A stretch of DNA of 64,000 nucleotides, taken from the sequence record PV400810.1; one strand, written 5' to 3'. Source of the stretch: Pseudomonas phage vB_PaeM_GXNNA8. A program made the position numbers and the translations under genes. Shown here piece after piece: positions 22,043-50,362 of the stretch. Position 1 is the first letter of the stretch. Each line of letters opens with the position of its first letter. The notes under the pieces are model-generated. The model worked only from the letters and a program-made list of their open reading frames with translations. It was not told the origin of the DNA and ran no database searches.

Positions 22043-24977
22043 GCAGGTGGATTTTGCTGCTTTGCGTAAATCGTTGACGACTCAAAACCCAGTGGTTGCA
22101 GCGACCCTGCGTAATGCTACGCCTCGTAACGGTTCATCCCCTGAACGGGATGAGATCAACGGTCATCGGACGGTTAACCCTTACAAACTGGAAAAGCTGA
22201 GTAATATCATCAGCAACAACATTAACGCGGCTACTGATTTGCGGTTAATCACGCCGTATATCGACAAAGCCACCTTGATCTGGCAGACGTGTCTACTCTA
22301 CCCCAATGGGAAGCAAGACAAAATCCTCACCTACGACACCCAACCGTCCCCTATTAAAAATGCAAAATTGCATGATGAACTCCTCACCATCTGGGATGGC
22401 TACTATACCAATGACTATAAGATCGAGAAAGATTTGAGGGAAATGATCGCGGATATTCTCTTCAATACCGGGAGTTATGTGCTGTTTAACTTGAGTCGCC
22501 CAGGTCTCGATTATTTGATCAACGGTGCGGAGCAATCCGGGGATGTTGCCGGTAACGAACAGTTCATGACCCAGGCTAAAGAGATGCTAAGTCATGAGTT
22601 CGTAGTCGTCAACGGTAAAGTCCGGGTGAAGAACAAAGGTGTCTTTGTCGGTAATAGAACCAGTCATAATACAAATAACACCGTCAGTGGTCTAGAATCC
22701 CTTTTCCTGAACCCTTCTTCTCAGGATGCTGGAGTGGAATTCAATATCTTTGAAGACGATAAAGACTCTGTCTCGAAGGAATTGGCTCAGCTGATTGATA
22801 TTACCCTGACCGATAACCCAGCGGTCTTGTACCTCCAGAAGTTCGAGGAAAGTAAACGTCGGTCGAATGTTGCCGCGGTAACGGGAGCGGAAGGGTTGGA
22901 CCTTATTATCCAAACCGCTCTGGTGGCTCGTACGAACCCTGGAGATGATCAACAGCACTATACGGATGCAGATGGTAAGAAACGCAAACGTAAGAAGCCT
23001 GCTGATCCTCAAGCCACTACCGTTAACTTAACAGAAGGTGAATTGAATGAGTTGAGTAACCGTTTGTTCCCTCAACGGAATCCGGTGAGTCAGATCATTC
23101 AATTCAGTAAACCCGTCGATGCCTTGAAGATTGCACCCTATGGACGGGGGATTACCTACAAGGTTCCCAGTGAAGCGGTGATTCCGATTCACATTAACGG
23201 GAGTAATGGAACTCAAACGGACTTTATCCTCCTCACGGATCCTCGGGATGGGAGTTTCCTGAAGAATACGAATGACTTCGAGTACTACCAGAGTAACCGA
23301 AGCAATGCCAGTATGATTGCTAACCGCCCTAAAAACGGTAGTACGAACAACCTGGTTAAACAGCTTCGTCAGATCCAAGAAGGGAAAGAATGTGATTTCG
23401 ATATGACCGAGTTCATTGAGATCTCGAAATCGAATATCATTCGACGGTACATGCAGTCAGTCCTCAGTGGTCGCGGGGAGAATATCAGCATTGAAATCGA
23501 TGAGGAAGCCAACAAGATCTTCCTGCAACGCATTTTCCGTAGGCAGGGGATTCGGTGTTTGTATGTGCCTGGGGAAGCGATGACCTATATGGCCCTGAAC
23601 TATAACCGTTTAGGGATTGGTCAGTCGTTGACTCAAATGGCTAAAATGCACATTGCTCGTTTAGCGGCCTTAGACCTCGCTGACGCGTTGGCGAACCTAG
23701 AGGCGGCTACACCCCACACCCAAATGACGATTAACCTCCAGGAGAACGACGCAGAGCCTTTTGCGGGTATTGCGGCGACCAGGGCAGCGTTCTTTGAAGC
23801 TAACCCACGGTTGCACAGTATTCTCTCAACATCTCAACTATCAGTCCCCATGATTGTGGATACCTTGAGGGAGAACTCCTTAACAGTTAAAGTCAACGCG
23901 GGTGAGAACCCTTACTTCCCTGCCTCGGATATTCAGCTCGATCAATTGGAAAAGAACATCTTCCGCCCGGTCGATCAGAATAGTCGTACGGAGCTGTTGA
24001 ACAAGATCGCCAACTACTTCCACCTGTCTCGGAGTTGGTTGGATGTCAGTGACGATCAGAACAACTTCCAGATTGAGGCCCTGGCTGAACACCAGATGCT
24101 CCTGAACCAAATCGTTAACTGGCAAGAACGCCTGGCAGACTTCATTATTGACTTCGAACGTAAGCATGCTCACGTGAACGGGCCTTTAATGAAGAAGTTG
24201 GTGACCAAGATCTCGGAGAATAAGAAACTCTGGTCACCGGACAGTAAGGAGAAACTGGAAGGGTCTGACGAAGAGATCATTAAAATGATTCTCGTCGACT
24301 TCTTGACTAACCTTAAAGCCCACTTCCCCATCCCCAGTTCTGTTGAAACGACCGCTAAACTCAAGGACAGTTTGGATACGGTGAGTCAGCTGGTGGAGTC
24401 GTGGGTTGCCATGGCGGGTCATTCGGGTAACCTGAAACAGATTGCTGAGCTCTTGGGTATTCCGGAATCTGATGACGGAGAAGGGAATAACAAGAACCTG
24501 ACGGCGATTAACGAGCAAGTGAAGTCAGTGCTCACGGTTGAAGCCTTCAGGCGCTATAACCTCCCGATGCCATTTGACGACATCCTTAACGATGGTAAGG
24601 GTGGTGGTCTTGCTTCCTTGGTGAACGCCGTTGTGAGTCAGCGTCAGAATGTCGGGGAGTTCCTGGCAGCCCTGATTGCAGGGACTCGTGATGCGGATGC
24701 TAAGGTCATTAAGGCACACGCCAAGAAGATCGATAAGGCTGATAAAGACCTCCAAGAAGCCAGGGATAAGGCGAATCTCCCTGAAGGGGATCAGAACGCC
24801 TTAGAGAATACCCCTCCCGGGGAAGAGGAAGAACCGGAAGGTATAGAGGAAGAGGAAGGTTCTGAAGCAGGTACTGAAGGAGAGGAGGAAGAAGAAACCT
24901 CTCCTGAGGGTGAAGAAGGCAATGAGGATGGGACCAATCCTGAAGAGAACAGTCCCGATACCAATCCCTTTGCTTAA
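21975..24977 (+). CDS. large protein (1000 aa) with a poly-acidic C-terminal tail; virion, portal or ejection protein are guesses
   Basis: C-terminal EEEEPEGIEEEEGSEAGTEGEEEEETSPEGEEGNED. A high-codon-bias antisense ORF is absent. The start codon is uncertain because the listed start overlaps the divergent 793-aa gene. Confidence 0.55.
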   Translation: MSIVRSKRLRMVDTSRRQSKGNTQVDFAALRKSLTTQNPVVAATLRNATPRNGSSPERDEINGHRTVNPYKLEKLSNIISNNINAATDLRLITPYIDKATLIWQTCLLYPNGKQDKILTYDTQPSPIKNAKLHDELLTIWDGYYTNDYKIEKDLREMIADILFNTGSYVLFNLSRPGLDYLINGAEQSGDVAGNEQFMTQAKEMLSHEFVVVNGKVRVKNKGVFVGNRTSHNTNNTVSGLESLFLNPSSQDAGVEFNIFEDDKDSVSKELAQLIDITLTDNPAVLYLQKFEESKRRSNVAAVTGAEGLDLIIQTALVARTNPGDDQQHYTDADGKKRKRKKPADPQATTVNLTEGELNELSNRLFPQRNPVSQIIQFSKPVDALKIAPYGRGITYKVPSEAVIPIHINGSNGTQTDFILLTDPRDGSFLKNTNDFEYYQSNRSNASMIANRPKNGSTNNLVKQLRQIQEGKECDFDMTEFIEISKSNIIRRYMQSVLSGRGENISIEIDEEANKIFLQRIFRRQGIRCLYVPGEAMTYMALNYNRLGIGQSLTQMAKMHIARLAALDLADALANLEAATPHTQMTINLQENDAEPFAGIAATRAAFFEANPRLHSILSTSQLSVPMIVDTLRENSLTVKVNAGENPYFPASDIQLDQLEKNIFRPVDQNSRTELLNKIANYFHLSRSWLDVSDDQNNFQIEALAEHQMLLNQIVNWQERLADFIIDFERKHAHVNGPLMKKLVTKISENKKLWSPDSKEKLEGSDEEIIKMILVDFLTNLKAHFPIPSSVETTAKLKDSLDTVSQLVESWVAMAGHSGNLKQIAELLGIPESDDGEGNNKNLTAINEQVKSVLTVEAFRRYNLPMPFDDILNDGKGGGLASLVNAVVSQRQNVGEFLAALIAGTRDADAKVIKAHAKKIDKADKDLQEARDKANLPEGDQNALENTPPGEEEEPEGIEEEEGSEAGTEGEEEEETSPEGEEGNEDGTNPEENSPDTNPFA

Positions 24978-24996
24978 TCAAAAATAAACGTTATAC

Positions 24997-25039
24997 CCCC
25001 TAACCCCTAGCCCCTTTAACAGGGCTAGGGGTTAGGGGT
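24997..25039. terminator. bidirectional hairpin cccctaacccctagccc / gggctaggggttagggg (17 bp perfect) flanked by A-run and T-run
   Basis: A perfect inverted repeat with a 9-nt loop, aaaaataaa upstream and tttatt downstream, sits between convergent genes. Confidence 0.7.
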
Positions 25040-25049
25040 TTATTCAGTG

Positions 25050-25607: not shown

Positions 25608-25976
25608 GGCATTAAGACAAAAAATAAAAGGAGCGAGGGGAGGAGGAACCCACCTGCTTAGAGCCGATGGCTGTCCCTCCTCCCCTTAACTTGCTAGGTG
25701 TTCAACCAGCGCTAGTTTAGCACCTTCACAAGCCGCCTCACCGTCCGAGAACCTTCCCGCCGACAGCACCGAAAAGGAGACTGAAGTCCAGGTCAATAGC
25801 TCAACAGTGTGACTTGACGATAGCGGCTATACCGTCCATAGGGTTCGGAGTATGAGTTTTGCCAAGCTCATACTCGACGAGTACCACGCCTTATCACCCT
25901 TAAGTTCAGGCGGGACCCGCAGACGCGGATTAATATGACACGTTGTCCGTATATAATACCGTCAACGTGTTAAAAC
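25608..25976. other. 369-bp ORF-free, GC-rich, hairpin-dense region; candidate structured ncRNA or replication/regulatory element
   Basis: Stems include gaggggaggagg...cctcctcccc, ggagtatgagtt-ttgcca-agctcatactc and ccgcagacgcgg. No ORF of 60 aa or more exists on either strand. Confidence 0.3.
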
Positions 25977-30026: not shown

Positions 30027-30102
30027 TGGTTCCGTGACCAGGGTTCGAACCCGGGACCTACTGTTTACGAAACAGTTGCTCTACCTACTGAGCTATCACG
30101 GA
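30027..30102 (-). tRNA. tRNA-Thr (anticodon CGU), 76 nt with genomically encoded CCA
   Basis: The reverse complement folds as a canonical cloverleaf. Acceptor TCCGTGA/TCACGGA is 7 bp. D-arm is GCTC-AGTAGGTA-GAGC. Anticodon arm is ACTGT-TTCGTAA-ACAGT, giving U33 and C34-G35-U36. The variable loop is 5 nt. T-arm is CCGGG-TTCGAAC-CCTGG. Discriminator A is followed by CCA. Confidence 0.85.
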
Positions 30103-36891: not shown

Positions 36892-39237
36892 TCAGAAGAG
36901 ATCCAACAGGACCAAGGGACTTCTTCGACTGACCACCCGAAGAGTGGCGACATTCTTATCGACGGCTGAGTAACTGAATAACCAGAGTTGATCACCTCCG
37001 GAGAATTGAATCAGTTTATCAATAACGTCCAGGTTATCCGTCTCTTTCATCGTTCCCTTGAATCCTTTCTCTATGAGATCGAAGTACTCCGGGAATCGAC
37101 TGCGCTTAATGATCAAGGGTTCTCCCGATGGATCCGGCAACGGCCCATTGCGCTTATTGATCACCGTGATGTGGAAGCGGCGTTCCAACGGTAGCTCCAA
37201 CTTCTTCTGAGCTTCTTGGATTAGCCCGCCCTCTTCACTTTCTACGCCATCGTATTTCCCATCGGGAACGAACAGTTTCATTTGTTCCGTCAGGTAGTTA
37301 CCCGGCCCTCCCGGTTCGTTGAACCGTCGGTACCCTTCAGGATGATCTTCTTCCAGGATCTTATCCAGCTCGTCGAAGTCCTCGACGATGTCGGTTACCG
37401 ACAGATGGTTCCGTGAGCTGGGTAAGCGTTCATACCCCAGGGAACTGACGAACCACGCATTCACCGTTGCGGTCAGACGAGTCCGAATGAACTCACCCAA
37501 CTCCTCATCCAGAATCCCTTCATCCAGGTACTCCTTAACCGCTTTCATCCGGTGGTAATACGACGGGGAGTGATCGTCCTCCTTAAAGTCTTTAAACAGG
37601 AACGGGAGATCGTTCTTGAGTCGGATTTTATCCCGAGCGTCGGAACAGGTGAAGGTATCCCAGATCGTAGCAGAGAACGACGTGGCGTTGGTCCCTGGCA
37701 TGTTCTTACTCAGGGCGGTGTTGGTCGTCACCACAGCCGCCATCAGCTTCTTAGACGTCGCGCTGACGATACCTTCGGACACCGTAACCACTGGGATCCC
37801 TTCCAATTCTTCACAGGTCTCCAGCGTGATCTCCAGGGACTTGGTATCTTCTACCACCTTCTCCACCGGCAGGACCACCACGTCATTACCGTCTTCCGTA
37901 GCTTCCAGCAACGGCAACAGCTTTTCAGGGCTAGACAGAGCAGTGACCATATCGAGTGTACGACTCCTTACAACAGTGCTGAACCAGCCGTTATCCTTTT
38001 CCAGGTCAATAATCACAATACGGAAACAACCCGGGAGGATACTCTCTTCTTGAGCAGACTGTTCAGGGTGGCGTTTATAAACCTTCTTTATCCGCTTCCA
38101 ATCCGTTTCCGGAATCAGATAATGCTTGGGTTTACCGATGTAATGGAAATAACTGGTGAGATCAAACTCATCCTTGTTCTTAACGGTCAGGTTTTCAAGA
38201 TCATTCCGGACCTTATTCCAGCGTTGAACTTCTGGGGGTTGGAACCGAGGATCTTCAGGGCGAGTATACCCCTGGTTGTCCCGTCTGGCCAGCTCAGCCC
38301 GTTTCCTCACCATTTCAAAGATGTCTTCAGTGGTTGGATCGTTCTGGGATTCCACGCCGTTGTTCGCTCCAAAGTTAGAATGAAGGAAGGCGGTTTGTGC
38401 TTCGTGGATCAGATGGCTCTCCGTCGTGGTTGGCGTCTTCACCTCGTACACCAGGGACGCATAAGGATTCGTACAACCTAACGTGTTACAGGCGAGGCTA
38501 AACGTATCCTTGAAATGCTCCAGGTTAGCGATCATTTTCTGGATTTCAGGGGTCAACCTATACGTGAACTGTCGGCCTGCCGGACTCTTGCACAACCAGG
38601 AGATCATCTCCATGGTTAAAACCGACCGATAGGCAAAGACTGCGGATCCCATATAGTCCGACGTCGTCAACTCCGAAGACCCTTGTTTACCCAGGACAAT
38701 CAGTCGCTGGACAAACATCGGCACAGAGGCCGTTGAGATAAAGCGGAGGGTTTCAGGGTACTTGTTCAGGTTGTTAACGAATTCATCCCGAATGGGACAT
38801 TTAACCGGGGTTTTAGGAACAAAACGAAAGTTTTCTAAGGTCTCCCGGTATTCGTTATAGAACGCCCCTTGCCGTCTTCCTAGCTGCTGAATCAATTCCA
38901 CCCCAGCACGGGAAAACTTCTCCAAGAAGAGTTGGTTACTATCTATTTCAGAATTCGCATTCTCCCGGATCTCCCGGAGCGCAGCGTCTTCATAGAGGGA
39001 GTTACCGTAGCGTTCCCAATGGATGGAACCCCCACCCCCACCCTGACTATTCCCTTGCAGGCCGTGTTCGAGGACACCACGGAGTTGCATGGACGGTGAC
39101 ATCTGGTTGTACATACCTTGACGGGCGCCAAGGCCCATCGCCGTACCAGAAGCCCCGGGGATGGGTGCATTAGGATCTATTGAGACGGTTCCTCGGTTGA
39201 CTTGTCCGGATGGACGGAGGATGTTTGCCATGGCCAT
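36892..39237 (-). CDS. large hypothetical (probably virion) protein, 781 aa
   Basis: Long ORF. The antisense 309-aa ORF 37552-38481 is Arg-rich and was rejected. Confidence 0.6.
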   Translation of the reverse strand: MAMANILRPSGQVNRGTVSIDPNAPIPGASGTAMGLGARQGMYNQMSPSMQLRGVLEHGLQGNSQGGGGGSIHWERYGNSLYEDAALREIRENANSEIDSNQLFLEKFSRAGVELIQQLGRRQGAFYNEYRETLENFRFVPKTPVKCPIRDEFVNNLNKYPETLRFISTASVPMFVQRLIVLGKQGSSELTTSDYMGSAVFAYRSVLTMEMISWLCKSPAGRQFTYRLTPEIQKMIANLEHFKDTFSLACNTLGCTNPYASLVYEVKTPTTTESHLIHEAQTAFLHSNFGANNGVESQNDPTTEDIFEMVRKRAELARRDNQGYTRPEDPRFQPPEVQRWNKVRNDLENLTVKNKDEFDLTSYFHYIGKPKHYLIPETDWKRIKKVYKRHPEQSAQEESILPGCFRIVIIDLEKDNGWFSTVVRSRTLDMVTALSSPEKLLPLLEATEDGNDVVVLPVEKVVEDTKSLEITLETCEELEGIPVVTVSEGIVSATSKKLMAAVVTTNTALSKNMPGTNATSFSATIWDTFTCSDARDKIRLKNDLPFLFKDFKEDDHSPSYYHRMKAVKEYLDEGILDEELGEFIRTRLTATVNAWFVSSLGYERLPSSRNHLSVTDIVEDFDELDKILEEDHPEGYRRFNEPGGPGNYLTEQMKLFVPDGKYDGVESEEGGLIQEAQKKLELPLERRFHITVINKRNGPLPDPSGEPLIIKRSRFPEYFDLIEKGFKGTMKETDNLDVIDKLIQFSGGDQLWLFSYSAVDKNVATLRVVSRRSPLVLLDLF

Positions 39238-47814: not shown

Positions 47815-47856
47815 AAACCGAATCTCCTAAATGATCCATTGGGTATAATCACGACG

Positions 47857-47874
47857 GTAATATAGGTTTGATTT
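47857..47874 (-). promoter_or_regulatory. promoter-like 18-mer, variant copy 4 (AAATCAAACCTATATTAC)
   Basis: Matches the consensus at 14 of 17 positions. It lies downstream of hairpin 47904-47930 and 43 nt upstream of the ATG at 47814. Confidence 0.4.
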
Positions 47875-47903
47875 CCCCTTTAGCTTAAATGCGGTATAAC
47901 ACC

Positions 47904-47930
47904 CCCTACCTAAGCTCAGCTTAGGTAGGG
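47904..47930 (-). terminator. hairpin ccctacctaagct...agcttaggtaggg
   Basis: Inverted repeat after gene 47981-48421. Confidence 0.5.
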
Positions 47931-47980
47931 AGGTCAGTAATGGGGTAGTAAGTGGGTATACCAGTAAACATTTACTGTTT

Positions 47981-48421
47981 TCATGTCTCAAAGTCTACAG
48001 GGGGAGGAGCAGTCAGCAAGCGATCACCCGCATACACCGCCCCGTAATACCCGGGGCCTTCTTGATACAACGGTTCTGTCTTCGTAAAGGCTAAGAAGAC
48101 ATCTTCCAATCCGTCAGGGACTTTACACAACGGAGGATCAGTAGGGGGTTTATCTTGAAGTACTCTGTACGCTTCTGTAAGCTTCCAATAGAGCCGATTG
48201 TCCTTACCCGCCTCTACCGTACTCCTTTCTACCTGATCGCCTCGCCTAAGCGCTGCTAGACGCCTTACCAGCATCACAAACAACGCATCCGCCTTAGCAA
48301 AGGTAATCTTCGCCTCCCTTTCCAATAACCGTATCAATATCCCCGCATTCGTTTGATCCTCTACACTCACGTGTAAGAGATCAAATGTATTCTTAATTTC
48401 ATTAACCCCACGATGCGTCAT
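47981..48421 (-). CDS. hypothetical protein (146 aa)
   Basis: ORF only. Confidence 0.45.
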   Translation of the reverse strand: MTHRGVNEIKNTFDLLHVSVEDQTNAGILIRLLEREAKITFAKADALFVMLVRRLAALRRGDQVERSTVEAGKDNRLYWKLTEAYRVLQDKPPTDPPLCKVPDGLEDVFLAFTKTEPLYQEGPGYYGAVYAGDRLLTAPPPVDFET

Positions 48422-48702
48422 TGTTTTTCTTTTCCTTTAACCGTGATGCGTTCACCAAGCAGACCGAGCACACGTTCGTCTTTGCCGTCGTCGAGACAGG
48501 GAATGATATCAGGTAGAGGTTCAGTTGCCCGGAGGCGTTTTCGGATGAGTTTGAGCATTACAGGCCCGGGTATCTCGCTCGTCCGCGTAGTGCCGTACAA
48601 ATGGTAACCTGCCAGTAAGTCTGCCAGTTGACGGTTACTGAAATGGTCGAAATCCCCAGTCATGGTATTTACTCCGGTAGTGAATCGGTAATGGCAGAGC
48701 AA
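48418..48702 (-). CDS. hypothetical protein (94 aa)
   Basis: Has a 4-nt overlap with the downstream gene. Confidence 0.4.
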   Translation of the reverse strand: MLCHYRFTTGVNTMTGDFDHFSNRQLADLLAGYHLYGTTRTSEIPGPVMLKLIRKRLRATEPLPDIIPCLDDGKDERVLGLLGERITVKGKEKQ

Positions 48703-49018
48703 TCTTCTCAGCTCTGCTTGCTGAATGTATTAATCAGAACGTGTTGGAATACTGATTAACCTACGGTTCTCTCTCCTTTTTCCTCATCCCCCTTCCGGGG
48801 GTATAAGGGGGTATTCCCTCTCTTCCCTTTCTCTTCTCTCTCTGTATTCCGTATAGATCAAAAGAAAGATCTAAAGAGAATAGAGAAAGATCAAAAGAGA
48901 GAACAAGGAAGTCGTAGTTACTCCGTAACTACTCCACTCTTTATTAGGAAATAAACCCCTTTCCCCACTGCTTGTCAGCCAGTTTACAATACAATAAATA
49001 CATTAAGTGATAAATTAC
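48703..49018. repeat. 316-bp non-coding island with an 85-nt polypyrimidine tract, an AG-rich tract with three GATC sites and direct repeats, and several hairpins
   Basis: Elements: ttaatcag...ctgattaa; cccccttccggggg; ctctcttccctttctcttctctctc followed by gatcaaaagaaagatctaaagagaatagagaaagatcaaaagagag; and gtagttac-tcc-gtaactac. Confidence 0.5.
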
Positions 49019-50362
49019 CTAAGGAGCATCAAATACCCTGTCATTCAAGAAGAGGGTTAAAGCAGAATGTTCCCTGAAGATAATATCTGGACTTTCCGTA
49101 TCCTTCATGAGTTCAGTACGAGCACCAATCAAAGTACCCTCCTTGTACTTCAAGCGATCATCCCCACTCATAAAGAAGAACCGTACAGGCATACCCGGTT
49201 CTAGTAAGTCCCTGTTCGAGTTATTCCACTGGATCGTTTCCAATGTCCCATCATTGTAAGCATTCACGGATAAGTGCTTACAGAGGTTATTGGTAGGAGT
49301 CGGTTCAAAGGGTATAATCTCCTCCCCACTGCTCCGCTTAGCGGTTTGGTATTCGGAGAGGGAATCAGGACGGGTAGATGCTGACTGACCCTTAGCGTAG
49401 TAGTTGCCCACTTCACCCATGACCGCGTCCGAACTGATCAACCGTTTACCCGTACCCTCATTCTGACGGTCAATGTCAGCCCCATCCACATGTCGACCTG
49501 TACCGGTTGCCAAGATCGTTGTAACCCGGTCTTGGGTAAAGTACGTGGCGTGGAGGGTAGGGACTGCATCAGGGGGTAGTCGATAAATACTCAGTACCCG
49601 TTTACCGTTCTCATACCGACCGATCTTGAAGAGCGGGTAAATCATCCAAAGGCCTTTCTGGTAATACATCCCAAAGCCTTTGGTATAGATCCCAAACTCC
49701 TCATGGGTCTGCATCCACATCCCTAACTGGGGTAAAGGCACCGCAGACGGTATATCGATCAACTTAAAGACCCGAGGGTTATCAATAGGGCGTTCAATGT
49801 CCACCCCTCTAAAGGCATCCTTACCCGTCAACTGAAGTTGCTTACCGTATTTGGTGAGTTGGTAGTGGAGCGCGTCATCCAAGGTGGTCATTAAGTGTTT
49901 GTCAGACACCATCTCATTCTTCAGCAAAGCGTACCCCAGTTCAATCATCTGGAACTTAACCGTTATCAGGTTAATACTGTCCTTACCTTCCAGGTGAGCC
50001 AAATGGACGCTGTTACCGGCCATCTCAGGGTTCGAGTCACTCAAGGGGATACACCGGAACCGACTCATGGTTTGATGAAGACCTTGGCGTTCGACCACTT
50101 CAATAAAGAGATTGTCCTTATAGGGCAGGATTCGGTTCAGGTAAACCCCGGGTTGCAAGTTGCCCTGAATACGCCAGTCATCGGAACAGTTCGCTGAATA
50201 CATCGACAACCGAGCCATCCCCGTGGGGATAATCAGTTCAATCTGTTCAACCGGAGTAATGATCGTTGCAAACAGTCGGATCTTCTTATCCGACCGTTGC
50301 GTATTCACCGAGTTTGCTAAGGCGATTAAGTTAGCTAATGGACGTGGTAATTCCATACTCAC
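49019..50362 (-). CDS. hypothetical protein (447 aa), first gene of a 15-kb minus-strand block
   Basis: ORF with a 4-nt overlap with the next gene. Confidence 0.55.
   Translation of the reverse strand: MSMELPRPLANLIALANSVNTQRSDKKIRLFATIITPVEQIELIIPTGMARLSMYSANCSDDWRIQGNLQPGVYLNRILPYKDNLFIEVVERQGLHQTMSRFRCIPLSDSNPEMAGNSVHLAHLEGKDSINLITVKFQMIELGYALLKNEMVSDKHLMTTLDDALHYQLTKYGKQLQLTGKDAFRGVDIERPIDNPRVFKLIDIPSAVPLPQLGMWMQTHEEFGIYTKGFGMYYQKGLWMIYPLFKIGRYENGKRVLSIYRLPPDAVPTLHATYFTQDRVTTILATGTGRHVDGADIDRQNEGTGKRLISSDAVMGEVGNYYAKGQSASTRPDSLSEYQTAKRSSGEEIIPFEPTPTNNLCKHLSVNAYNDGTLETIQWNNSNRDLLEPGMPVRFFFMSGDDRLKYKEGTLIGARTELMKDTESPDIIFREHSALTLFLNDRVFDAP

Follow-up and report, generated by a model that had tools for sequence, protein, structure and literature searches.

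The 64,000-nucleotide (nt) stretch of Pseudomonas phage vB_PaeM_GXNNA8 (PV400810.1) that we analysed, called the window here, contains a non-coding spacer between two genes of the minus strand, the homologues of gp071 and gp072 of phage EL. A first-pass annotation had correctly placed a CT/AG island between two minus-strand genes and had seen in it a resemblance to replication origins. We found that the spacer is a real and statistically unusual sequence, but that its interesting part is a conserved single-copy element past the gp071 stop codon and not the adjacent island. The element contains a motif of about 50 nt that is present once per genome, at a fixed syntenic place, in about 30 contigs of EL-like jumbo phages. 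The CT/AG stretch is a young, length-variable hairpin repeat. With moderate confidence we regard the spacer as a terminator and insulator region, which would form the non-coding boundary between the late virion block gp068-gp071 and the accessory cassette gp072-gp075.

The conserved element past the gp071 stop codon

Between 48400 and 49300 the window was 95-99% identical to 8 records of EL-group Pseudomonas phages (Elvirus, phiKZ-like jumbo phages). The spacer corresponded to positions 83,718-84,066 of EL, with both flanking genes on the minus strand of the window. Variation within the genus was determined in 7 Elvirus genomes and is listed here, as the number of variable sites in 100 nt, for the parts of the spacer and for the upstream gene.

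48895 to 49018, the first 124 nt past the gp071 stop codon: 1.6
48806 to 48912, the CT/AG island: 8.0, with 22 gap columns in addition
48664 to 48787, the gp072 leader: 5.6
gp071, codon position 3: 15.6
gp071, codon positions 1 and 2: 1.1

The first 124 nt are constrained like non-synonymous sites and differed from the third codon positions of gp071 with a Fisher p of 7e-6. Constraint within the spacer is lowest in the island, which evolves near the neutral rate. The first-pass annotation had made its case depend on conservation in related phages. In this respect the two parts behaved differently, as the island was absent outside the genus, even from the nearest relatives, whereas the adjacent 124 nt were strongly conserved.

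In a protein search the gp071 homologues formed a graded series from 72% down to 36% identity, and scans of metagenome and viral collections gave about 45 distinct relative loci, named below by L numbers where needed. At the loci with a gp071 homologue of 44-72% identity the same motif order was found directly past the stop codon, in a spacer of usually about 130-150 nt. An AT box resembling cTATG..TATAC is followed by the hairpin P1 (YYTGS-GRRA-SCRGG), G-tracts, TATTTTTGC, an A/U-rich stretch and P2, a perfect hairpin of lineage-specific sequence. A CU-rich tail, (C)CTTCCTTSTWYGCTTTTGATC, then leads to the ribosome-binding site (RBS) of a variable downstream gene. The window keeps this order from 49018 down to about 48900, with a degenerate P1.

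48985 to 49018, minus strand: AT-rich segment (82% AT) directly after the stop codon, matching the 'cTATG..TATAC' box of the relatives
48939 to 48987, minus strand: element core of P1, G-tract and U-tract, match to the covariance model R1 with 26.6 bits
48968 to 48982, minus strand: degenerate P1, CTGGCT-GACA-AGCAG
48956 to 48966, minus strand: G-tract GGGGAAAGGGG
48949 to 48955, minus strand: U-tract TTTATTT
48914 to 48932, minus strand: P2, GTAGTTAC-gga-GTAACTAC, inverted repeat I16
48900 to 48913, minus strand: CU-rich tail GACTTCCTTGTTCT, 3' of P2

The AT-rich segment lies at the 99.96th percentile of the AT content of 34-nt stretches in the window and was invariant in the 7 Elvirus genomes.

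P1 was predicted independently by RNAalifold. In an alignment of 26 sequences, changes on both sides of the stem were seen in 7 of the 9 tested pairs, and 79% of the cells could pair. When the partner strand was slid by 1-3 columns, only 36-56% of the cells paired, and none of 500 shuffles reached the covariation score of P1. The column pair 13-18 alternates between GC and CG, and the pair 8-23 is UG, AU, GU or CG. About half of the cells are U-G in several pairs, which would give A-C mismatches on the opposite strand. Because of these many G-U pairs, P1 belongs to the transcribed strand, as RNA or as single-stranded DNA.

P1, the G-tract and the U-tract were combined in the covariance model R1. 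In the window R1 gave one match with E < 1 (48939-48987, minus strand, 26.6 bits). The 211-kb EL genome also contained one match (29.7 bits), with the runner-up at 14.6 bits and an E of about 1. The 31 relative loci had exactly one match each, with 33-52 bits and always just past the stop codon; the single-copy count rests on 8-kb loci for the relatives and on the complete genome for EL. Besides the window, the motif was located at L081:33749-33798 and about +40 to +90 past the stop codon of the gp071 homologue in L011-L077. The element always follows a gp071-family virion gene and is always near a DnaB-like helicase gene.

R1 was not matched in the clade nearest to EL (L010, L012, L044, L045, L047), where the canonical P1 is replaced by CTCTGGGGAAAGGGGATTATTTTG. 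This sequence can form a hairpin of its own, which is followed by a U-tract. In OBP and phiKZ the gene neighbourhood is kept and the element is absent: in OBP the gp071 homologue and the helicase gene are directly convergent neighbours, and in phiKZ gp102 immediately adjoins gp101. Rfam gave only sub-threshold chance matches in the window, where the gathering score was reached only by a tRNA elsewhere, and no match at the element in 8 relatives. Neither tRNA nor tmRNA was found in the spacer region. Extra helices, between the post-stop region and the G-tract and between the CU tail and the RBS, were suggested by folds of single sequences and were discarded as not robust, since L056 breaks the pairing CAGCC/GGCUG. 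In one clade (L018-L024, L054, L056, L062) a conserved open reading frame (ORF) of about 47 amino acids (MLNDLTKKKI...) lies about +150 past the stop codon, between the element and the convergent helicase gene; it has no obvious counterpart in EL.

The 3' end of the gp071 block

The position of P2 was analysed in 32 sequences, the 31 relatives and the window. A perfect stem of at least 6 base pairs (bp; 6-14 bp, stem GC 38-83%) was present in 24, and 22 of these also had a tail with at least 64% pyrimidine. The stems differ between lineages. In the window P2 is followed by GACTTCCTTGTTCTCTCTTTTG, which is CT-rich like other EL terminator tails (e.g. tgttctctct), and P2 with its CU tail in EL is a weak intrinsic-terminator-like module. 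Elsewhere in EL and in the window, terminators take the form of a perfect hairpin with TTTATT or a CT-rich tail such as TGTTCTCTCT behind it. A pyrimidine-rich 5' arm as a general habit of EL terminators was excluded, as both arm orientations occurred with a mean pyrimidine fraction of 0.47.

At other loci a terminator-like structure involves the core of the element. A canonical hairpin with the G-tract as one of its arms precedes TTTTTG in L015, L017, L032, L077 and L078. In L025, L026 and L064 a long helix that starts within a few nt of the stop codon has P1 inside it and closes at the U-tract. Since this helix begins beside the stop codon, no room is left for a promoter between the gene and the structure. 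Just 3' of P2, the sequences of L012 and L045 agree well with the early-promoter consensus, which assigns the element to the 3' end of the upstream operon. We propose that the first 124 nt (49018 to 48895), presumably transcribed in the minus-strand direction, would act as an elaborate, probably tandem, terminator and 3'-untranslated region (3'-UTR) module at the end of the late operon. The constraint on P1 and on the G-tract is sequence-specific, possibly for the binding of a factor. In the transcript the island hairpin of about 37 bp may at most insulate the two transcription units from each other, or serve RNA processing or stability at their boundary.

Related signals have been mapped by ONT-cappable-seq in two phages (PMC10914365, PMC11512511). 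In phiKZ, 61 terminators were mapped in which TTAT comes after a C-rich/G-rich hairpin, and numerous short structured RNAs derive from untranslated regions (PMC10914365); the picture in 201phi2-1 is similar (PMC11512511). The spacer resembles these systems in its putative operon-end hairpin with a TTAT or T-rich tail, in its tandem or elongated hairpins and in a structured intergenic RNA that is syntenic between genera. In RisingSun, where the gp071 homologue gp078 is 48% identical, a 297-nt spacer occupies the same position and has a CU/AG hairpin, CCCTCCTCTC-gtga-GAGAGTGAGGGGAGG, followed by TTATTAT. This fits the published phiKZ terminator motif (PMC10914365). In contrast to the phiKZ-like terminators, the element of P1, G-tract and U-tract is single-copy and conserved in sequence, is not a generic motif and is absent from phiKZ itself. 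The EL hairpin is also much longer, low in GC and lacks a following U-tract.

Several observations weigh against a terminator and insulator. A literature search found no transcriptome data for EL and nothing specific to this locus on EL transcription, and we infer termination, read-through and RNA ends in EL. P1 is degenerate in EL, P2 has 8 bp and is AT-rich (38% GC), and the EL structure that closes on the U-tract reaches only about -15 kcal/mol. In the sequence no U-tract follows the large island hairpin on its 3' side, which is therefore not a canonical intrinsic terminator. The island folds almost as well on the plus strand (-36.1 kcal/mol) as on the minus strand (-39.8 kcal/mol), which does not single out either strand for the island. 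With the early-promoter matrix no promoter was found for gp072, and the derivation of the AG arm of the island from an old RBS region, described below, rests on short purine-rich matches. Finally, a plain terminator would not require the degree of sequence conservation seen in P1 and the G-tract, and termination would account for only part of the function.

Because P1 and the G-tract are kept in sequence and P2 only in shape, we considered a cis-regulatory or small RNA. P1 and the G-tract could then be a factor-binding or riboregulatory element. This element would set how far the variable cassette is transcribed or translated together with the late operon, through antitermination, attenuation or a switch between Shine-Dalgarno (SD) and anti-SD pairing. 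Such a switch would offer the CU tail two alternative partners, the G-tract on its upstream side and the purine-rich RBS on its downstream side, and the EL island would be an exaggerated form of this CU:AG pairing. The sequence of P1 and the G-tract is kept where the flanking protein is only about 50% identical, and the element is present in a single copy per genome. In L017 and L036 the terminator is only about 20 nt away from the RBS of the next gene, which must therefore be expressed by read-through. In L010, L018, L019 and L021 the CU tail or a post-stop CUCCC can pair with a GGGGA or GAGGG RBS. Short 5'-UTR RNAs made by premature termination are known from phiKZ and 201phi2-1, one of which is conserved in EL at another locus (PMC10914365, PMC11512511). 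However, robust covariation was limited to P1, the long-range pairing CAGCC/GGCUG failed in L056, and G-rich and CU-rich tracts pair promiscuously in silico. The canonical P1 is lost in the closest clade (L010, L012, L044, L045, L047) and degenerate in EL, the AG arm of EL no longer adjoins a start codon, and a promoter upstream of P1 was not identified. We take a regulatory RNA of this kind as a tentative explanation that is rather improbable.

The layout recalls the nut site of phage lambda, in which the end of a gene is followed by the boxB hairpin with a GNRA-like loop, a terminator and the downstream genes. Here, too, a hairpin with a GNRA-type loop (GAAA, GGAA, GAGA) lies between a stop codon and one or more terminators that would gate the downstream genes, and a CUCUU string resembles the boxA core. 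This likeness serves only as a lead. The element differs in having a tetraloop, not a pentaloop, in the CUCUU lying inside a stem and in there being one site per genome. This phage group is transcribed by phage RNA polymerases and not by the host RNA polymerase with Nus factors. An N-like protein was not identified, though no search for N homologues was made.

The same sequence conservation leads to a wider interpretation. P1, the G-tract and the U-tract might be more than a terminator and might represent a cis-acting RNA of a new class, or a DNA signal in single-stranded or R-loop form, restricted to the EL/RisingSun-like nucleus-forming jumbo phages, which we consider possible but hardly likely. 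A phage factor may bind the element and license read-through into the variable cassette, as an analogue of antitermination with the phage's own RNA polymerase. As a second option, the element may be a transcription-primed start of replication. In either case the CT/AG hairpin of EL would be a lineage-specific elaboration of the element.

The CT/AG island

The first-pass annotation had described an 85-nt polypyrimidine run on the plus strand. Two pure pyrimidine blocks were indeed present, at 48767-48785 (19 nt) and 48814-48843 (30 nt), but the run is not continuous, since the 19-nt G-rich segment TTCCGGGGGTATAAGGGGG with 32% pyrimidine separates the blocks; overall it has 79% pyrimidine. No purine or pyrimidine run in the window exceeds the 30-nt block in length; the maxima of 200 shuffles had a mean of 16.5 nt and were never above 25 nt. 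The purine-rich run was confirmed at 48855-48911 (57 nt, 84% purine, interrupted about every 10 nt). A content of at least 80% purine over 60 nt is reached at just one other place in the window, 24819-24899. This second stretch includes a pure purine run of 22 nt (24876-24897) and is found close to where a plus-strand ORF ends; a strong, bidirectional-looking terminator (24990-25045) follows just downstream. The repeated AGATCAAAAGA occurs, as claimed, exactly twice in the window, at 48855 and 48888. The island and the smaller structures around it are as follows.

48806 to 48912, minus strand: CT/AG island; the minus-strand RNA folds into an imperfect hairpin of about 37 bp (folds and repeat families D2, D3, I1 and I2)
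48856 to 48912, minus strand: CU-rich 5' arm with three TTTCT(Y)TTWGATC-like units
48844 to 48855, minus strand: loop
48806 to 48843, minus strand: AG-rich 3' arm containing a (GA)n microsatellite
48788 to 48801, minus strand: small GC hairpin CCCCC-GGAA-GGGGG; the stem is kept and the loop changes
48721 to 48734 with 48994 to 49007: imperfect 14-nt inverted repeat I3 with the core AATGTATTWA, which brackets the whole spacer

The units of the CU arm are TCTTTTGATC, TCTTTAGATC and TCTTTTGATC with spacers (repeat families D2 and D3). As direct repeats they make up three imperfect 14-nt units with spacings of 12 and 21 nt, which are present in Elvirus genomes only. Further copies of the island were not found in the EL genome.

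In the fold of the island (48806-48912) the AU-rich hairpin reached -39.8 kcal/mol. Shuffling each arm separately gave -22.9 +/- 3.7 kcal/mol, and none of 500 shuffles was as stable (z = -4.6). The complementarity of the arms is therefore real and not a by-product of composition, and the large imperfect stem proposed by the first-pass annotation is supported. Its three named hairpins were likewise present, at 48730-48737/48752-48759, 48788-48801 and 48914-48921/48925-48932. The small GC hairpin has the loop GAAAAAAAG in EL and phiRU and the loop GAAA in HHBS8_1. The fold of the whole spacer gave -102 kcal/mol (z = -4.3) for the transcribed strand and -83 kcal/mol (z = -4.25) for the opposite strand, and the inverted repeat I3 could close the spacer RNA into a single domain. 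WATGTATTWA had just two matches in the window, one at each end of the spacer; it was therefore rejected as a general promoter word and is regarded as an inverted repeat. A G-quadruplex as a special feature was also rejected, as the G4Hunter score of 1.64 is ordinary and 619 windows of EL score at least 1.5.

Among the 7 Elvirus genomes the spacer varies by indels of -11, -9, -7, -1 and +5 nt. The three larger deletions fall within the (GA)n part of the AG arm, and the -1 and +5 indels lie just 3' of it, next to the small CCCCC/GGGGG hairpin. The island hairpin folds in all 7 variants with -27 to -42 kcal/mol and a shifting register. At the apex of the stem two palindromic GATC sites pair with each other (UAGAUC...GAUCUA); where GATC is changed to GATT, this pair is retained as G-U.

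The comparison with the relatives suggests how the island may have arisen. The CU-rich tail of the terminator would have grown as a segment of about 12 nt, by chance with a GATC in it, was duplicated in tandem. The AG-rich tract pairs with the expanded CU tail and probably descends from the purine-rich RBS region of an ancestral downstream gene. Consistent with this, the terminator tails of L012 and L047 already contain CTTTTGATCTTT, which holds one GATC site. The AG arm includes the 9-mer GGGAAGAGA, which is found again in the RBS region GAGGGAAGAGAAATG of the downstream ORF in L010. As read from the sequence, the CU tail of L010 can already pair with this RBS region; the computed fold pairs the tail with an upstream G-rich segment instead. 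The 572-residue ORF of L010 matches EL gp073 over residues 202-311 only. These matches suggest that in the EL lineage an L010-type gene had its 5' part rearranged or lost and that the old pairing of tail and RBS was left in the spacer, where slippage enlarged it. Between the gp072 leader and the long spacers of L012, L045 and L047, no homology was found beyond purine-rich RBS-like strings.

The island could then also be functionless debris, a low-complexity inverted repeat from a decayed or rearranged ancestral gene that was enlarged by slippage and is tolerated in a non-essential spacer. The near-neutral density of substitutions and the microsatellite-type indels agree with this, as do the absence of the island from the nearest non-Elvirus relatives L010 and L011 (spacers of about 145 nt), the match of EL gp073 to just the middle of the L010 ORF and the variable content of the cassette between the spacer and the helicase gene among the relatives. 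Yet the complementarity of the arms is well above that of composition-matched shuffles and survives the indels in 7 of 7 genomes, and RisingSun has a shorter CU/AG hairpin at the same position, independently or by descent. We hold debris to be a rather improbable explanation. A further comparison is offered by the T7-like RNase III hairpins, which resemble the predicted fold as long, imperfect intergenic hairpins with internal loops that separate transcription units. The stem of the island differs in being of low-complexity CU:AG sequence that varies in length between strains.

The first-pass annotation had further read the GATC sites as a cluster reminiscent of a replication origin. The three sites are present, but they are no more clustered than chance predicts: among the 374 GATC sites of the window, 5 triplets spanning at most 33 nt were observed against 5.9 +/- 2.6 expected from random placement. 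One of the three sites is GATT in 4 of the 7 Elvirus genomes. A cluster for Dam methylation was ruled out by these occurrence statistics and by this loss. To our knowledge, Pseudomonas has no Dam methylase, and in the annotation of EL no methyltransferase is annotated.

In a replication origin or another site acting at the DNA level, the AT-rich segment would unwind and the three AGATCWAAAGARAG units would be iterons; alternatively, the hairpin with the G-tract would serve, close to the DnaB-like helicase gene, as a priming signal in single-stranded or R-loop form. The region is indeed single-copy and non-coding, has three imperfect 14-nt direct repeats and lies about 2 kb from the helicase gene in EL (0.2-2.5 kb in the relatives). 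The segment 48985-49018 is among the most AT-rich 34-nt stretches of the window, which is equally explained by a 3'-UTR or by the box that aligns with the relatives, and a literature search found no reported origin for this phage group. The iteron and AT-rich origins (lambda ori, oriV) and the GATC-rich oriC share with the spacer an AT-rich block, short direct repeats and a long non-coding region near a replication gene. However, the repeats of the island are 14 nt long, irregularly spaced, confined to one genus and located in the least constrained part of the spacer, the density of GATC is ordinary, and there is no adjacent initiator gene. No inflection of the GC skew was seen at 84 kb, and the extremes of the cumulative skew in EL are at position 8 and at 150.9 kb. 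The covariation of a G-U-rich hairpin on the transcribed strand is unexpected for a binding site in duplex DNA, and OBP and phiKZ keep the gene neighbourhood without the element. The origin-like flavour does not hold up. Nothing that we found marks the spacer as a replication origin, which we judge very unlikely. Palindromic tetranucleotides in tandemly duplicated units can mimic an origin-like cluster, and the island is of minor importance.

The same annotation had also considered H-DNA, in which the homopyrimidine-homopurine tract would form an intramolecular triplex with a structural or regulatory role. The 30-nt pure pyrimidine run has a partial mirror symmetry, TCCCTCTCTTC...CTTCTCTCTCT, but the best mirror arms are 10-11 nt long and contain a mismatch, the tract is 7-11 nt shorter in other Elvirus genomes, and the 57-nt purine tract is interrupted. 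A triplex has next to no chance of being the explanation. The broader suggestion that the spacer is regulatory is supported.

Flanking genes, other features and significance

The flanking genes and the leader are located as follows.

49019 to 50362, minus strand: upstream gene, homologue of EL gp071 (ORF list, EL annotation)
48418 to 48663, minus strand: downstream gene, homologue of EL gp072, 81 amino acids (ORF list, EL annotation)
48664 to 48787, minus strand: gp072 leader with the hairpins TTAATCAG...CTGATTAA (48730-48759) and GCAGAGC...GCTCTGC (48694-48717)

The gp071 homologue belongs to phrog_3245 (E = 2e-134). Matches of its family found by tblastn are labelled 'virion structural protein' in RisingSun, OBP and others, and the protein is distantly related to phiKZ gp101. 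gp071 is the last gene of the block gp068-gp071, which includes the virion structural protein gp069. The RBS of gp072, GGAG at 48673-48676, precedes the ATG at 48661-48663. Family searches gave no assignment for gp072 and gp073. The DnaB-like helicase gene lies further on, on the opposite strand, and the cassette in between differs in its genes among the relatives.

EL gp073 (146 amino acids; window 47981-48421) matches only the middle of the 572-residue ORF at L010:4988-6703, with 38-43% identity. This partial homology suggests gene fragmentation or decay in the EL lineage. Nearby, at L004:428-618 (phage vB_PQ1, PQ516283.1, 107676-107866; about 47830-48020 of the window), the depositor of the 184-kb record lists a 'CRISPR' repeat_region and many tiny ORFs; the repeat_region looks more like an artefact of annotation or assembly than like an array. 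Small ORFs annotated in the spacer by some depositors differ in strand and position between the records. Protein coding by the spacer was ruled out, because indels of 11, 9, 7, 5 and 1 nt among the 7 Elvirus genomes leave no reading frame preserved.

The early-promoter consensus of EL (19 nt), ATTTTAAACCTACATTATT, was built from nine annotated EL 'putative phage promoter' sites. Its matrix scored at best 3.8 bits between 48651 and 49060, compared with at least 25 bits for the nine annotated sites, and thus gave no promoter in the spacer. Elsewhere in the window matches with 13.6-30.4 bits were found, at 118, 29439, 42128, 36788 and 47874 (minus strand) and at 38074 (plus strand). The moderate match at 47874 (13.6 bits, minus strand) is upstream of the gp074 homologue and would drive the gp074-gp075 homologues; gp072 and gp073 are left without a recognisable early promoter. 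TATG, the signature of phiKZ late promoters (PMC7598289), is contained in the AT box of many relatives, and AATG stands at the equivalent place in the window. A scan for sigma-70 promoters and simple terminators was uninformative, with a single terminator-like match on the plus strand (48806-48824) and none on the transcribed strand.

Two features at a distance from the spacer were noted. A tRNA gene is located at 30030-30102 on the minus strand (Rfam RF00005, 69 bits). A minus-strand spacer of 369 nt at 25608-25976 is GC-rich with many potential helices and ends with a long hairpin and then a TTTTATTTTTT terminator. It matched no Rfam family at the gathering score and could be another structured RNA.

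For the EL-type jumbo phages we found no mapping of transcription signals in the literature, and the spacer offers a concrete terminator and boundary module. If the motif controls read-through into the hypervariable cassette or marks the initiation of replication, it would provide a handle on gene regulation in the phage nucleus and on the engineering of these phages.

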